Below are positions 52,410 to 58,428 of a DNA stretch of 64,000 nucleotides, piece after piece (positions within the stretch are counted from its first letter, which is position 1; every line of letters begins with the position of its first letter). The stretch covers positions 136,750 to 200,749 of the forward strand of contig JAFYUV010000017.1 in the NCBI GenBank assembly GCA_017549425.1, read 5' to 3'. A model generated the notes under the pieces. The model was not told where the DNA came from. It saw only the letters and a list, made by a program, of their open reading frames with translations, and did no database searches. A program made the translations under genes and the position numbers. The DNA is from Clostridia bacterium. GTDB lineage: Bacteria > Bacillota > Clostridia > TANB77 > CAG-465.

Positions 52410-52608
52410 AATCTCAACTCCTTAGATGAAATTATTATATTATATAATTCCCATATTTTCAAGCAAAAAACGCTTTAAAATATTTGTATAACAAAACAAT
52501 ATTACATTTTTGTAACAAAATTGTAACAAACGTTAAAATTATTGACGTCTTCTAGCTTTTTATGATAAACTAATGCAAATTAATGTATGATGAGAAAGTG
52601 GGTGTAAC

Positions 52609-53043
52609 ATGGATTATATAACTAGTAAAGTTTTTGTAATAGCAGTTGGAATATTTGTAACATTATCCATTGTTACAATGGCAATACTTAGCTTTACCAA
52701 ATTAGGAGAAATATTTAATTTTGTAGAGAATACGGATATATCCATTAGAAACCAATATGATAATATGTATTCTATGTATAATGGTGCTGAGCTAAATACA
52801 GTAGGATTACTTAATGCTTTAAGAAGATACGAAGAGGATGATGCTGTAAAGATACGAGTTGTAAACAACAGTTATATTGTAAACATTGACGATGATGATG
52901 AAGATACAATTAACAATAAAACTGATATGATAAAAGATATAGAGTCAAAAATAAGAGATGGCATTTTAGATTATCATACGCCATACGTAGTATCAGTTAC
53001 AGAGGATAGCATGACTGTTAATTTAACATTTACTAAAAAATAA
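52609..53043 (+). CDS. Uncharacterized N-terminally membrane-anchored protein P1 (144 aa)
   Basis: RBS GAAAGTGGGTG; single N-terminal hydrophobic helix then an acidic extracytoplasmic domain; no prepilin G-FTLxE motif. Confidence 0.5.
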   Translation: MDYITSKVFVIAVGIFVTLSIVTMAILSFTKLGEIFNFVENTDISIRNQYDNMYSMYNGAELNTVGLLNALRRYEEDDAVKIRVVNNSYIVNIDDDDEDTINNKTDMIKDIESKIRDGILDYHTPYVVSVTEDSMTVNLTFTKK

Positions 53044-53055
53044 AGGAGGGAACTT

Positions 53056-53508
53056 ATGGAATCACCAGCAAGTGAAGCGTTGATTATAGGAATGAATGTT
53101 TTTGTTTTTGTTATAGCATTAACTTGCGGAGTGATGCTAATGACAACAGTATTAAACATGTCAGAAGTTGCAAATGATATAATTAAAGATACCTCTACGT
53201 CTTCACTACTTGAGTTATATGGTGAAGGTGAAGAAAGATTATATACAGGGGATGAGTTACTTGCGTTATATCAAAAATATACAGCTGGAACCGTTATTGC
53301 AGCTACAGGTGGAACAGTGCCTGGAGGATTTAATACTGCAGGATTACAAAATAAGTATACTTTCTATATAAAACGTGAAGGATATGGAGCTGAAAACTTA
53401 GAAAATACAGAAATAACAGAGGAAGATTTAAAAAAGAATTTTAAACTTGAGTATCAAGGAGAAGAAGACTCAAAATTAAAGTATTTATTTAGTGAGGTGA
53501 CAACATAA
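53056..53508 (+). CDS. Uncharacterized N-terminally membrane-anchored protein P2 (150 aa)
   Basis: RBS AAAGGAGGG; N-terminal ASEALIIGMNVFVFVIAL anchor. Confidence 0.5.
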   Translation: MESPASEALIIGMNVFVFVIALTCGVMLMTTVLNMSEVANDIIKDTSTSSLLELYGEGEERLYTGDELLALYQKYTAGTVIAATGGTVPGGFNTAGLQNKYTFYIKREGYGAENLENTEITEEDLKKNFKLEYQGEEDSKLKYLFSEVTT

Positions 53509-56500
53509 TTGAGAGATAATATAAGTTTAATATTTGCGGTATTATTTGCAGTTTTTGTATTAATAATTTTGCCACTTATAAGTGTTACATCAAGGCAAGA
53601 CAGTATTTCTTATAACAAAGTATTAGCTTTAACAACAAATTTTGTAGATGATGTTAGAACAAAAGGGTATTTAACAGAGCAAGATTATACAGAGTATTTA
53701 ACAAAACTAGCATTAACTTCAAATACGTATAAAGTTGAAATGGAATATCACGAAAAGATGCTTATAAAAAACATAGAAAATACTGATGAATATGTAGAAG
53801 ACACTATGATTTATTACAATAAATTTATAGTAGATACAATAAATCCAGATGATGGCGACGATACTGATGAAGACGTTTTAAAATTAGCAGTAGATGATGA
53901 ATTCTATGTTAAGGTATACAATACAAATATTACAACAGCCAGTTTGTTATATAACTTTTTTGCAAGAGTAAGTATTCCAGAGAAAATAATAAATATTGGT
54001 TATGGTGGAAAAGTAAGTCACTCTTCAGGTTCAAATTTTATACAAACGAATTTTGAATCTGCATATACACCGATAGTAAGGTTAGATATTGTAAAGGATG
54101 ATAGGATTAGTGAAGGTATTGACCCAAGGACGGAAACAACCTGGAGTGGTATTGATAACGATTATATATCAACTGAAAGACTTTATTTCAACACAGAAAA
54201 AGCAGGGGCAAAGTTAGTTGTTGAATTTACTTTAAGTAGATTTGCTAAAGTGGGAGCCTTCACTATAACTTCGGATATGTTTACTTCTGGAAGGGTTAAT
54301 AAAGATGATGTCAAGAATCATATTATAAATTATTTAGTCCTTTCTGGAGAATTAAAGGGGTACACAGTGCAGATAGATCCAAACACTATTAAAGTGGAGA
54401 GCGATTCTGAAGAAGGACTACAATTAAAAGGAACTATTACAATAACTGGAATAAAATTAGAAGAAGGAATGTATAGAACTAGTTCATTTATTAATGTAAA
54501 ACCTGGACTTGGTGAGGGAAATACTGGAATAATATCTCCTTCTGTAAGTTCAGAAGAAATAATAATGACAAGACCTCAACCGGGAATATCAATTAGAAGA
54601 ACTAATGCTTATGCACACGAATTAGATGCTAATGAAAAAGTTGAGTTTGAAGTTTCTGTATCAAATATAGAGAATTTCGCGGGAAAAACAAAAAGATATA
54701 AATTAATTTCTGTTAGTACTAATGAGGAAATTATTTCTGTGAACACAAATGATGGAACTATTAATATAATTGATGGTACAGAGGCAATTTTGGGAACTTT
54801 GACAGATAGGCAAATAGTTTCTGAAGTTGAGAAGTATACACTTACTCTTACTATAAATAAATTACCTGGTAAATTTGTAGGGCAAGAGTTGAAGTTAGTA
54901 ATAGAAACAGAACTGTCTGGGAAAACAATAAAAGGTGATTCAGATAAATTTGTATATACAAATGAATTAACACAATACAATATAAAAGGTATAAGTTATG
55001 CAGGATATATACATAAAGGAAATAGTTATACAAGTAATTTACCTACTTACACAATAAACCAAGGAGAAGAGTTAAAAATAAAAGCCAAGATAACACTAGA
55101 TAATGCTATTGAAAATGAAGCAGATAAGCAAAGAGTAAATGATATGGTACTTAATGATTTAATTCTAAAGGACACAACAACATCGTTAGTCGCTAGTACT
55201 ACAATTTCTATTACTAAAAGTGAAGTTGGAAGCAACTATGTGGAAATTACTTTTTCTATTCCAAATGATAAAGCTGGAACAATTAGTTATTATTTATATA
55301 ATAAACAAGATGAAAGCGTAAAAGAGGATAGCTTTTCTGTAGAGGTAAAATCTACTATTAGTTATACAATAACCGGTGTAGGATTTAATGGTGGATGTTT
55401 TACTAGTTATGGCAATAAAATATCAAATAATGAGTATGAGTTTGAAGAGGCAAACGATAGAAATTATTTAAGTCTAGGAGTGAGATTAAAAATAACACCA
55501 GAAGTTATAGATGAATCTGAAGCTCGCGAAGCAATAATTCAGTTAATAAAAGAAGATATAGTTTTGAAAAATATAACAGAAGATAAAACGGTTGAGTTAG
55601 ATTTTAGTTATAATTATGCGTCTGAAGATAAAGTGAATATTAGTGTAAGTTTGCCAGTAAAAGAAGCGGGAGTAAGAGAATACTATTTATATAGTAAAAA
55701 AGACACCAATATAAAAAGTGAAACTGTGAAGGTTACTGTAAAAAATGATGAAACGTCAGTGTATGGAATTACGGGATTCGGTGAAATTACAGATAAGAAA
55801 TTCTTAGCTTACAATGATGAAGATGATTTTACAGTTAGTTTTAAAATTGATTTTACTAGAGTTGAATATTATAATTTTACTTATGAAGAACGAGATAAAT
55901 TAATTTATTATATTAGAGATAATTTGAAATTAATAAATTTAGAAGATAATTCGGAAGTTTTAATATATAAATATTCTGATAAGGATGGTAAATTTAATCC
56001 TTATTTTAAAACAGATTTGGAAGATATGTATTTAGACATGAGTTGGAAGTATAACCTTCTAACCACTGATTTAACTGGCAGATATAAACTTAAATTAGGA
56101 GAGTTTGAAAGCAATGAATTTGATATTAAAGTATTAGAGAATGATTTGCAATACATTGAATTTATTGGTGAAAATTATAAGTATGCGACTATTACTCATT
56201 ATGATAATGACTGGCAAACTCTAGAGAGCAATATTGGATTTTCACAATTAGCTAACATAAAAATAGCTAATCCAGAAGTAAAAAGTTATAGTAATTCTCA
56301 ATTAGCTAACTTGTTGAAAAATTATATTAAATATAAAGAGCGCTATTATAATCGTGAGTTTGAGTATGATTATAATTTAGTCGTAACGAAGATAAAAAAT
56401 ACAGAAGACTTATTAAGTGTTAAATTGACTTTTAAAATTCAAGGAGAGGAGACTTATCCTCGATATCCAGGGGGAATAACTGTAGAGAATTGCCATCAAG

Positions 56501-56949
56501 AAGGAAAGGATATCCATATATTGCTTGAAGATAAAGCAATTACTAATTATTACAGCTGCAGTTTATCAAGTAGCTATATTAATTTGTCTGGAATTACTGA
56601 AGAAAATCAATATGACTATGATTTTGGAGGGGTATCCCCAACTATGACTATAAGTTGGAAAAAAAATCAAAATTATATAACGGATGGTTACTGTAATTCT
56701 GTAAGTGGAGTAGAAGATATATTGAGAGATGGATTGAATATTAGAACATCTGATGGTTTAAAACGCCCTCGTTTATATGTGTGGCCAGAATTTGTTGAAG
56801 ATATTTCTAACGACAATTATTATAGCTATAAATTTAAAGTGTTTTTCTATCCTTGGGAAACTGAAGAAATATATAGCCTTACAGACTCAGAAACGTATTA
56901 TTTGTATTTATATGATAAGAAAATATCAAATATAACTGTAAGATACTAA
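53509..56949 (+). CDS. Uncharacterized giant N-terminally anchored surface protein P3 (1146 aa) with internal Ig-like tandem repeats
   Basis: TTG start with RBS GAGGTGA; N-terminal TM helix; internal repeat (...ITFSIPNDKAGTISYYLYNKQDESVKEDSFSVEVKS... versus ...VNISVSLPVKEAGVREYYLYSKKDTNIKSETVKVTVKN...). Confidence 0.55.
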   Translation: MRDNISLIFAVLFAVFVLIILPLISVTSRQDSISYNKVLALTTNFVDDVRTKGYLTEQDYTEYLTKLALTSNTYKVEMEYHEKMLIKNIENTDEYVEDTMIYYNKFIVDTINPDDGDDTDEDVLKLAVDDEFYVKVYNTNITTASLLYNFFARVSIPEKIINIGYGGKVSHSSGSNFIQTNFESAYTPIVRLDIVKDDRISEGIDPRTETTWSGIDNDYISTERLYFNTEKAGAKLVVEFTLSRFAKVGAFTITSDMFTSGRVNKDDVKNHIINYLVLSGELKGYTVQIDPNTIKVESDSEEGLQLKGTITITGIKLEEGMYRTSSFINVKPGLGEGNTGIISPSVSSEEIIMTRPQPGISIRRTNAYAHELDANEKVEFEVSVSNIENFAGKTKRYKLISVSTNEEIISVNTNDGTINIIDGTEAILGTLTDRQIVSEVEKYTLTLTINKLPGKFVGQELKLVIETELSGKTIKGDSDKFVYTNELTQYNIKGISYAGYIHKGNSYTSNLPTYTINQGEELKIKAKITLDNAIENEADKQRVNDMVLNDLILKDTTTSLVASTTISITKSEVGSNYVEITFSIPNDKAGTISYYLYNKQDESVKEDSFSVEVKSTISYTITGVGFNGGCFTSYGNKISNNEYEFEEANDRNYLSLGVRLKITPEVIDESEAREAIIQLIKEDIVLKNITEDKTVELDFSYNYASEDKVNISVSLPVKEAGVREYYLYSKKDTNIKSETVKVTVKNDETSVYGITGFGEITDKKFLAYNDEDDFTVSFKIDFTRVEYYNFTYEERDKLIYYIRDNLKLINLEDNSEVLIYKYSDKDGKFNPYFKTDLEDMYLDMSWKYNLLTTDLTGRYKLKLGEFESNEFDIKVLENDLQYIEFIGENYKYATITHYDNDWQTLESNIGFSQLANIKIANPEVKSYSNSQLANLLKNYIKYKERYYNREFEYDYNLVVTKIKNTEDLLSVKLTFKIQGEETYPRYPGGITVENCHQEGKDIHILLEDKAITNYYSCSLSSSYINLSGITEENQYDYDFGGVSPTMTISWKKNQNYITDGYCNSVSGVEDILRDGLNIRTSDGLKRPRLYVWPEFVEDISNDNYYSYKFKVFFYPWETEEIYSLTDSETYYLYLYDKKISNITVRY

Positions 56950-56977
56950 ATTTAATTAAAATAAAAGGAGGTAAAAA

Positions 56978-58288
56978 ATGAGATTAACAGATTTAGCAAT
57001 AGTATTTGTTGTAATAATGTTGCCAATAGTTATTATTGTATACGTTAATACATCATTTGTAGTACGTGCTGAAAGAGAGGAAATGTACTATAAAAATATG
57101 ATTAACTCTGCAGTAAGTGATGCAACAATTGCAATGAAAAATGTAGAAAATGATGACTATGAAATAGATTATGGTTATTCTGGAATTGTAGATAACAAAG
57201 TAAGTGTTAATGCAAATGTTGCTGTTGATACATTTTTTACCTCGTTATATAATAATCTTGGAATAAAAGGCAATAAAGGTTCTGAAGACTCTTTTAAATC
57301 ATATATCCCGGCCTTAGCTATAATAGATTATGATGGAATATATATATATTCAGCAGAAGAATATGATGGGGTTCCTGTGTATACAATAAAACCTAAAAAG
57401 TATTTTACCTATACATATTACATAGAAAAAACAACAAGTGGCTATACAACAAATTATGAAATAAAACCATATACTAAAGAAGTTGACTCTAATAAAATAA
57501 ATGCTAATTTGATATATCAAGTAACTTTTACTCAAGATGACTATGTTTTCTTAAAGGTGTATAACATAGACGAAACGTATAATATAGTTAGAGAAATTAG
57601 TACTCCAGATAGTATTACTTATAATAATGAAGTGATAGTGGATTATACTAAAGCTTTTTATTTAGAAGATAGTGATAATAACAACTGGCTTTTGGGTGAT
57701 GTTTATACTTTGAGTAGATTTGGTGGTGCTATGTTATCTACTGATGCAGATAAGTTGCTTTATGGAGAATATGATGAGTCTGGAGAGTTAGTAAAAGATG
57801 GAATAGTTCAACATTTAGCGAAACAAAGGAGAGAGACTATAGCTAAAATTTGCATGGAAGAAGTTTCTTACGCGGTTAATGCTCACAACTTTTTTGCTAA
57901 AAAAGCTGGTATAAGGTATGTGTTTAATTTTAGTGTGAATTCAGATTCAGACTGGTATGAAACGGTAGATGGAATTGGAATATTAGCTATAGCTCAAGGA
58001 ATTTCTCTTGGTAATAGATATTTAAATTACAATGCATATAGTGTATCGGATTTGTCTAACGCTAAAAAATATTATTTATCTGATTCGTATATGGTGGAGG
58101 ATGAGTCTGGAAATATTAATAAACAACCATATAAAATGTATCACGCATCGTCAGAGTGTGGCATTTATCAGATTTATTTAGAAGCTTTAAAGAGCGGAAC
58201 GAAAGGACCTTTGAGTCCAGGCTTTTTGTACAACAAAGAAGAGGCTGCGGCTAATGGTTTTAATGCATGCTATTTGTGTAGACCATAG
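56978..58288 (+). CDS. Uncharacterized N-terminally anchored protein P4 (436 aa)
   Basis: RBS AAGGAGG; N-terminal LAIVFVVIMLPIVIIVYV anchor; C-terminal Cys cluster (SSECG...CYLCRP). Confidence 0.55.
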   Translation: MRLTDLAIVFVVIMLPIVIIVYVNTSFVVRAEREEMYYKNMINSAVSDATIAMKNVENDDYEIDYGYSGIVDNKVSVNANVAVDTFFTSLYNNLGIKGNKGSEDSFKSYIPALAIIDYDGIYIYSAEEYDGVPVYTIKPKKYFTYTYYIEKTTSGYTTNYEIKPYTKEVDSNKINANLIYQVTFTQDDYVFLKVYNIDETYNIVREISTPDSITYNNEVIVDYTKAFYLEDSDNNNWLLGDVYTLSRFGGAMLSTDADKLLYGEYDESGELVKDGIVQHLAKQRRETIAKICMEEVSYAVNAHNFFAKKAGIRYVFNFSVNSDSDWYETVDGIGILAIAQGISLGNRYLNYNAYSVSDLSNAKKYYLSDSYMVEDESGNINKQPYKMYHASSECGIYQIYLEALKSGTKGPLSPGFLYNKEEAAANGFNACYLCRP

Positions 58289-58399: not shown

Positions 58400-58428
58400 T
58401 TGACACTATAATTTATTTGCTATATAAT
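58400..58428 (+). promoter_or_regulatory. Consensus sigma-A promoter for P5-P6
   Basis: TTGACA, 17 nt, TATAAT. Confidence 0.55.

Follow-up and report, generated by a model that had tools for sequence, protein, structure and literature searches.

Four adjoining genes, P1 to P4, in an uncultured 'Clostridia bacterium' metagenome-assembled genome (MAG) probably encode the distal minor-pilin module of a Tad-type pilus (a type IV filament) that has diverged strongly. The stretch that was analysed, referred to as the window, comprises 64,000 nucleotides of contig JAFYUV010000017.1; the four products are deposited at NCBI as hypothetical proteins (IKV94_04505 to IKV94_04520, MBR5227882-MBR5227885; P1 is MBR5227882.1). 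The assignment is based on synteny with Tad-like machinery in related loci, on the paralogy between P1 and the putative major pilin pilA, on N-terminal helices of about 55 residues and on an A24 prepilin peptidase gene beside a homologous cluster in Clostridiaceae bacterium M8S5. Observed were the order of the genes, their paralogy, the protein architecture and, in relatives, the linkage to Tad-like machinery; action of P1-P4 as a minor-pilin set is the best-supported reading of these findings. Because the sizes and order of the machinery genes next to P1-P4 orthologues match, the window probably carries the pilin part of a cluster type that was published for TANB77, an uncultured gut order, and proposed, independently of this analysis, to encode a Tad-like pilus (PMC11680825); the match extends to machinery, gene order and protein sizes. 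New here is the split-locus form of this known, experimentally uncharacterised cluster type.

Gene order and assembly machinery in related loci

Eighty species-representative loci, 45 from the gut-MAG clade and 35 from distant organisms, were compared, and every open reading frame (ORF) was classified. The order P1-P2-P3-P4, whose conservation in other Clostridia had been proposed as a check in an initial annotation of this DNA, was found in 41 of the 45 gut-MAG-clade loci; in 39 of these 41, P3s, a shorter paralogue of P3, is located directly 5' of P1-P4. Upstream of P3s there are one to four copies of pilA and, farther away, pilB, a gene for a polytopic platform protein of ~690 amino acids (aa), an ATPase gene (~630 aa) and two ParA-like genes. 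Where the flank was long enough, a SAF/CpaB-like gene formed the head of the cluster, with CpaE/MinD-like and ParA/TadZ-like genes next to it. ATPase and platform were encoded in the same locus in 37/45 MAG-clade and 33/35 distant loci, and the order relative to the machinery was strictly conserved in 70 of the 80. Relatives of the window proteins include those of Clostridium sp. CAG:465 and CAG:921, which we take to be TANB77 lineages (a literature search gave no confirmation).

The CpaF-like ATPase (632 aa) had CpaF (PDB 8rkd) as its best solved match, with E = 1.4e-7 over ~270 residues, and matched the TadA family TIGR03819 with E = 1.8e-10. Its score against Pfam T2SSE (17.7-22.8 bits) was under the cutoff of 24.9; some members are named 'pilus assembly protein CpaF' in NCBI. 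Judged by these matches, the ATPase of the related loci is remotely but specifically related to the motor of Tad pili. The platform protein gave no Pfam or NCBIfam match, so T2SSF was not recognised by sequence.

A simpler locus was found in cultured Paenibacillus, Saccharibacillus and Tumebacillus and in a complete Clostridiaceae genome, with the order kinase, SAF/CpaB-like gene, two ParA-like genes, ATPase, platform, pilA, a small gene, P3s (~184 aa) and P4 (~330 aa). In the complete genome of Clostridiaceae bacterium M8S5, the homologous cluster is immediately preceded by a gene for an A24 prepilin peptidase (Peptidase_A24, 33.6 bits, cutoff 26.5). No such gene was detected close to the window operon, nor in the 10 kb 5' of the machinery genes of one TANB77-type locus.

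The proposal of the initial annotation that P1-P4 form a minor-pilin or pseudopilin and adhesin set, and hence a surface appendage, is supported, because the orthologues lie directly 3' of Tad-type genes in most relatives and because P1 is paralogous to pilA.

The ATPase (L003:1590-3488) carries an N-terminal transmembrane (TM) helix and, among the matches listed, is 83-94% identical, with >7500 clusters at 90% identity; the adjoining pilin-like genes, at only 35-60% identity, contrast strikingly with it in evolutionary rate. In Paenibacillus and in several MAGs, the first gene of the cluster, ahead of the SAF/CpaB-like gene, encodes a Ser/Thr protein kinase (L083:421-1884, L058:726-2114, L085:10-2028 and L087:241-2004), which suggests that the system is regulated by phosphorylation. 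Some loci contain an extra downstream protein of 591 aa (L003:18460-20235; L055, L056) that was labelled TadZ-like; by eye, its N-terminus is receiver-like and it contains a P-loop region of the ParA type, and no Pfam match was obtained. It is followed by a GGDEF gene in L003 and L004 (L003:20265-21230). In L087 (2027-3274), a second, canonical T2SSE ATPase is encoded upstream (E = 1.8e-16).

Subunit families

Profile-profile comparison by using HHalign indicated that pilA, pilB, P1 and P2 constitute a single superfamily (92.6-99.3%): the pilA and P1 families aligned over their full length (99.3%, E = 1.4e-20), and P2 aligned with pilA (95.9%), pilB (95.1%) and P1 (92.6%). The P1 family comprises 91 representative clusters. 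In an AlphaFold2 (AF2) model of P1 (pLDDT 88.8), a helix of residues 2-57 is followed by a small alpha/beta head. The N-terminus of pilA is nearly invariant (MDNAQKAIMIGVGLFITIIII), and P2 has the shared N-terminal motif M-E-x4-E-A-L-x-I-G; the consensus of the small-subunit family is [K/R/E]-A-[ILVF]-x-I-[G/A]-V, and the leader before it is only 5-7 residues long. A search of PDB sequences with the P1-family profile returned nothing meaningful. In several Paenibacillus species the RefSeq name of the pilA homologue is 'ABC transporter permease' (L083:8573-9031, Paenibacillus sp. EC2-1), which is likely to be a misannotation; 'hypothetical protein' is the name given to other Paenibacillus pilA homologues and to those of P3s and P4.

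P3 consists of a conserved N-terminal domain of ~185 aa, common to P3s (HHalign 99.9%, E = 3.4e-34; alignment A3), and a variable, repeat-containing ectodomain. Members of the P3 family range from 179 to 1627 aa, and their ectodomains are modular and hypervariable in length. The tandem repeats reported in the initial annotation were confirmed in part, as one clear pair of ~131 aa with weaker copies adjoining it; in a self-comparison the pair gave an ungapped score of 85, versus a shuffled maximum of 47, and a gapped local score of 114. Dockerin_1 was identified in the P3 homologues of L003:8534-9985 and L004:8534-9985 and Laminin_G_3 in a P3s homologue (L093:15197-16660); the variable ectodomain of the P3 family therefore recruits binding modules. 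For the N-terminal domain the only lead was a faint DUF4320 signal (5/50 members, best E = 0.17), and PDB sequence searches with P3 and with the N-terminal profile returned nothing meaningful. A homologue search with P3 residues 1-200 (53509-54108) gave no match despite clear homologues in the fetched loci (A3), which probably reflects a limit of the word index.

For P4, at least 137 full-length homologues were found (37-62% identity), all from uncultured Clostridia and none with a Pfam domain; by profile-profile comparison its family stands apart from the other subunits, and it reaches cultured Paenibacillus. The AF2 model (pLDDT 82) shows a helix of residues 3-55 and then a globular head; a PDB sequence search with P4 gave nothing meaningful. 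The C-terminal Cys cluster pointed out earlier is real: H389, C394, C431 and C434, residues of ligand type, are invariant in 52 P4 sequences, including the window copy. Ada_Zn_binding (PF02805) gave weak matches in 23 of these 52 (best E = 0.0012) and none for the window copy. The (I/M)LP motif within the helix of P3 and P4, likewise reported before, was found again; its Pro is invariant in the 52 P4 homologues and at least 90% conserved across the P3/P3s family. The N-terminal consensus of P3 and P4 is M-K/R-D-N or M-K/R-L-T-D.

Given that P1 is a paralogue of pilA, P2 a member of the same superfamily, P3 a paralogue of P3s and P4 a family by itself, the operon in the window represents the second copy of a subunit triplet that was duplicated (pilA/pilB/P3s, then P1/P2/P3), with P4 added.

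Operon layout and transcription signals

The four ORFs were recovered exactly as first annotated, in length and position (Table 1). The intergenic gaps P1/P2, P2/P3 and P3/P4 are 12, 0 and 28 nt, in agreement with the tight spacing described earlier; the strong ribosome-binding sites (RBSs) described with it were found for P2 and P4 (AGGAGG), with GAGGTG preceding the TTG start of P3 and the weaker AAGTGGGTG preceding P1. Hydropathy profiles of P1-P4 showed one hydrophobic segment per protein, at the extreme N-terminus, and no other, and together with the AF2 models of P1 and P4 they bear out the single N-terminal helix per protein.

The hairpin after P4, together with a perfect promoter before P5, supports the view that P1-P4 are a discrete four-gene transcription unit. 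This hairpin has an A-run and a U-run on its flanks and was missed by a simple terminator scan. A consensus scan (9/12) weakly suggests that the candidate promoter upstream of P1 drives the operon.

Table 1. Positions of genes, motifs and signals in the window
Feature	Position	Strand	Description
Candidate P1-P4 promoter	52542..52571	+	TTGACG, 18 nt, TAAACT; TG before -10
P1	52609..53043	+	ORF, 144 aa; pilin-like small subunit, paralogue of putative major pilin pilA
P2	53056..53508	+	ORF, 150 aa, AGGAGG RBS; pilB-like small subunit, same superfamily
P3	53509..56949	+	ORF, 1146 aa, TTG start; large subunit, candidate tip adhesin
Tandem repeat pair in P3	55126..55848	+	~131 aa each, residues ~540-660 versus ~661-780
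P4	56978..58288	+	ORF, 436 aa; conserved anchored subunit, C-terminal Zn-knuckle-like motif
C-terminal H-C-C-C motif of P4	58142..58285	+	Ada-type zinc knuckle-like; H389, C394, C431, C434
Intrinsic-terminator-like hairpin after P4	58296..58345	+	RNA fold -17.1 kcal/mol, z = -5.5
P5-P6 promoter, sigma-70	58400..58428	+	TTGACA, 17 nt, TATAAT; consensus 12/12
P5	58463..59869	+	ORF, 468 aa; Lys-rich N-terminus, one TM helix (residues 41-70), ectodomain
P6	59869..64000	+	Giant secreted protein; exceeds window, 1862 aa in full contig

Family and fold searches

P1-P6 had no significant match in Pfam, NCBIfam or PHROGs, with SLH and CWB2 domains likewise absent, and regular expressions applied to P1-P5 detected no G-F(T/S)LxE, no Flp-type G-x4-E-Y/F and no LPxT[GAN] motif. 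The absence of G-FTLxE, LPXTG, SLH and CWB2 noted in the initial annotation is thus upheld; its statement that the proteins have no recognisable family holds for curated libraries only. A sortase-assembled pilus was rejected, there being no LPXTG in P1-P5 or P6.

Several results weigh against a pilus. The proteins contain no canonical prepilin cleavage motif, with neither Gly at -1 nor Glu at +5. Curated pilin families (N_methyl, TadE, Flp_Fap, Class_IIIsignal and others) gave no hit at E<=1 for the window proteins and none at E<=10 across 52, 84 and 50 family members; by these profile searches, the proteins belong to no curated pilin family. A fold search with the P1 model recovered no pilin fold, as coiled coils swamped the matches, and the P4 model had no relative among solved folds. 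No ATPase, platform, ParA-like or pilA match was obtained by tblastn in the 64-kb window, and in the window's clade no machinery gene is located within 10 kb of the operon. For the published clusters, no pilus has been observed experimentally in any carrier and no peptidase was named (PMC11680825). Among the grounds on which the initial annotation would have given up its own proposal was assignment to an established family of pilins whose processing peptidase is encoded elsewhere; the findings come close to this.

The split locus and alternative explanations

P1-P4 could be an autonomous membrane-anchored surface complex in which P3 is an adhesin held by the anchors and no filament is formed; the linkage to Tad-like genes elsewhere would then reflect shared regulation or an accessory role, with P1-P4 as alignment or stator-like subunits. 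This would fit the window's clade, in which P1-P6 are kept intact without adjoining machinery, and the lack of a prepilin motif and of a pilin fold match. Such a complex is nevertheless unlikely, given that P1 is paralogous over its full length to the gene that occupies the major-pilin position, that an N-terminal helix of 55 residues is a hallmark of pilins and not a simple anchor, and that the order relative to the machinery is so strictly kept (70/80 loci).

In the window and in seven related loci (L007-L011, L013 and L014), serS, engB and ftsY occupy the place of the machinery; the downstream flank, with an AI-2E transporter and an AMP-binding enzyme, is the same in the split-locus and contiguous-locus clades. 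Absence of machinery genes from the window and the 10-kb flanks in these seven loci would also be expected if the clade had lost them and P1-P6 were an orphan remnant, decaying or co-opted. This explanation is rather improbable: the split form occurs with intact ORFs in several species among which P4 is only ~60% identical, the operon retains good RBSs together with a promoter and a terminator, and the invariant motifs are preserved in the window copy. The retention of the split arrangement with intact genes across species argues for a functional window operon whose machinery would be encoded elsewhere in the genome. In L010 and L011, additional genes close to the operon were considered as machinery and rejected, since they are P5/P6 paralogues or unrelated insertions.

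A sporulation-associated surface structure, which the initial annotation had suggested from its impression of the neighbourhood, found no other support and is highly improbable, as the flanking genes examined, with positions 1-31000 covered in part, are housekeeping (serS, engB, ftsY, histidine phosphatase, relA and recJ), and the neighbourhood is specific to the window's clade, pilus machinery flanking the genes elsewhere. A prophage or tail-fibre origin was rejected on the chromosomal context, the sole PHROG hint being to a minor tail protein (E = 0.11).

Proposed assembly

For a pilus, we infer that P1-P4 are processed, incorporated into the filament and located at its tip, where P3 has the role of adhesin. 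Each protein would be inserted into the membrane by its N-terminal hydrophobic helix and possibly be trimmed by an A24 peptidase after the [K/R/E]-A dipeptide. The CpaF-like ATPase and the fused TadC/TadB platform, whose genes must then lie outside the window, would extract the subunits and build the filament. On the TadCB-like platform, P1-P4 would make up a complex that primes assembly or sits at the tip, analogous to TadE/TadF, PilVWX-PilY1 or GspHIJK, beneath which the ATPase would polymerise pilA. P3 may provide a pilin-like base with its long ectodomain displayed at the tip as an adhesin, and P4 a conserved adaptor or partner bearing a zinc-knuckle-like motif; accessory roles would fall to P5 and to P6, the giant secreted protein.

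It is also possible, though this is put forward tentatively, that the system is a distinct, unclassified branch of type IV filaments across Firmicutes, from gut TANB77-like Clostridia to soil Paenibacillus. If so, the branch would be characterised by a CpaF-like ATPase with a membrane anchor, by one fused platform and by pilins that carry a non-canonical, archaeal-like [K/R]-A leader or are not processed; P1-P4 would be a dedicated tip module, in which the modular P3 ectodomain sets host or substrate binding, and the role of P3 could include the immune-stimulating activity reported for 'pilin 938' (described below). For work on the appendage it is relevant that the pilin module is separable from the machinery, that it consists of a duplicated triplet and a conserved zinc-knuckle-like subunit, and that whole-system homologues are recognisable in cultivable, genetically accessible Paenibacillus.

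Accessory genes and neighbourhood

P5 follows P4 in 39/45 MAG-clade loci, and P6 was found in 37/45 MAG-clade and five distant loci; from this distribution they appear as co-conserved accessory genes. P6 has a Sec signal peptide and neither LPXTG nor a C-terminal anchor. In the closest relatives, P5/P6 paralogues are duplicated, inverted or split (L010:13284-14618(-), L011:11263-13236(-), L013 and L014), and in some P5 copies a Sec signal peptide replaces the Lys-rich anchor.

The DNA of the window is chromosomal, with a GC content of 28.9%. The flanking genes examined are pgi, recJ, relA/spoT, ftsY, engB, histidine phosphatase and serS, all housekeeping, with serS divergent from P1. A T-box riboswitch might be expected upstream of serS in a Firmicute; no Rfam family reached the gathering score in the 64 kb, including the 199-nt serS leader (52410-52608, - strand). 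A serine recombinase with Resolvase, Recombinase and Zn_ribbon_recom domains extends over three consecutive ORFs (45516-46909, + strand) and is probably a frameshifted pseudogene from a mobile element.

Comparison with known systems

By eye, the small subunits resemble the archaeal class III pilins (Epd, Aap and archaellins), which are processed by A24 peptidases of the FlaK/PibD/EppA type: the charged leader is very short, and a small residue separates it from a hydrophobic run in which I, G and V are frequent; pilA has K-A-I-M-I-G-V, with Glu+5 absent. Pfam and PDB profile searches gave no match in support of this likeness. The tips of type IVa pili and type II secretion systems (PilV/W/X-FimU with PilY1; GspH/I/J/K) likewise combine several small subunits with a huge, variable, adhesin-like partner in one operon, but no sequence relationship was found, and the large subunit is N-terminally anchored here, whereas the PilY1 type is soluble.

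TadE and TadF of the Tad/Flp (type IVc) systems (Aggregatibacter tad, Caulobacter cpa) are small bitopic proteins encoded downstream of TadA/CpaF and TadB/C, with a presumed priming or tip role, and the TadE N-terminal domain shares with P3, P3s and P4 the hydrophobic helix with a conserved Pro ('LP'). Unlike them, the window set has no Pfam TadE or Flp match and no G/xxxxE(Y/F) processing site, its leaders are only 4-7 residues long, and the set is duplicated. The machinery also differs, the ATPase being membrane-anchored and the platform a single fused gene in the related loci.

The closest counterpart is the cluster described by Kim et al. (Nat Commun 2024; PMC11680825), who found 10-14 consecutive genes to be conserved in 122/129 TANB77 species; 12 genes are listed, 927-938 of CAG-245 sp000435175. 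The cluster encodes CpaB, TadZ, CpaE, a TadA/CpaF protein (640 aa, one TM helix) and a TadC/TadB fusion (693 aa), the two halves of which are structurally similar to TadC and TadB, and then seven single-TM 'pilin-like' proteins, 932-938 (PMC11680825). Foldseek revealed similarity of protein 938 (621 aa) to TadE and PilV over its N-terminal quarter, and the purified protein activates dendritic cells via TLR4 and improves anti-PD-1 efficacy in mice (PMC11680825). Both systems come from uncultured low-GC gut Clostridia. In the loci orthologous to the window, CpaB-, TadZ- and CpaE-like proteins, an ATPase of ~630-640 aa with one TM helix and a TadC/TadB platform of ~690 aa are likewise followed by small single-TM 'pilin-like' proteins and a large one with a TadE/PilV-like N-terminus; P1-P4 share the short N-terminal region, the single TM helix and the larger non-cytoplasmic domain. 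The published machinery is contiguous, whereas the locus in the window is split and retains only the distal pilin genes, and the published set ends at 938, apparently without the zinc-knuckle-like P4 family and the P5 and P6 families. The suggestion of the initial annotation that P1-P4 represent a novel appendage system is not upheld, the cluster type being already published as a putative TANB77 pilus (PMC11680825), and the discovery is modest because that interpretation is in print. The pilin-like proteins were reported as exclusive to TANB77 among gut species (PMC11680825); here, Paenibacillus, Saccharibacillus, Tumebacillus and Clostridiaceae were found to encode remote homologues of pilA, P3s and P4 alongside this machinery.

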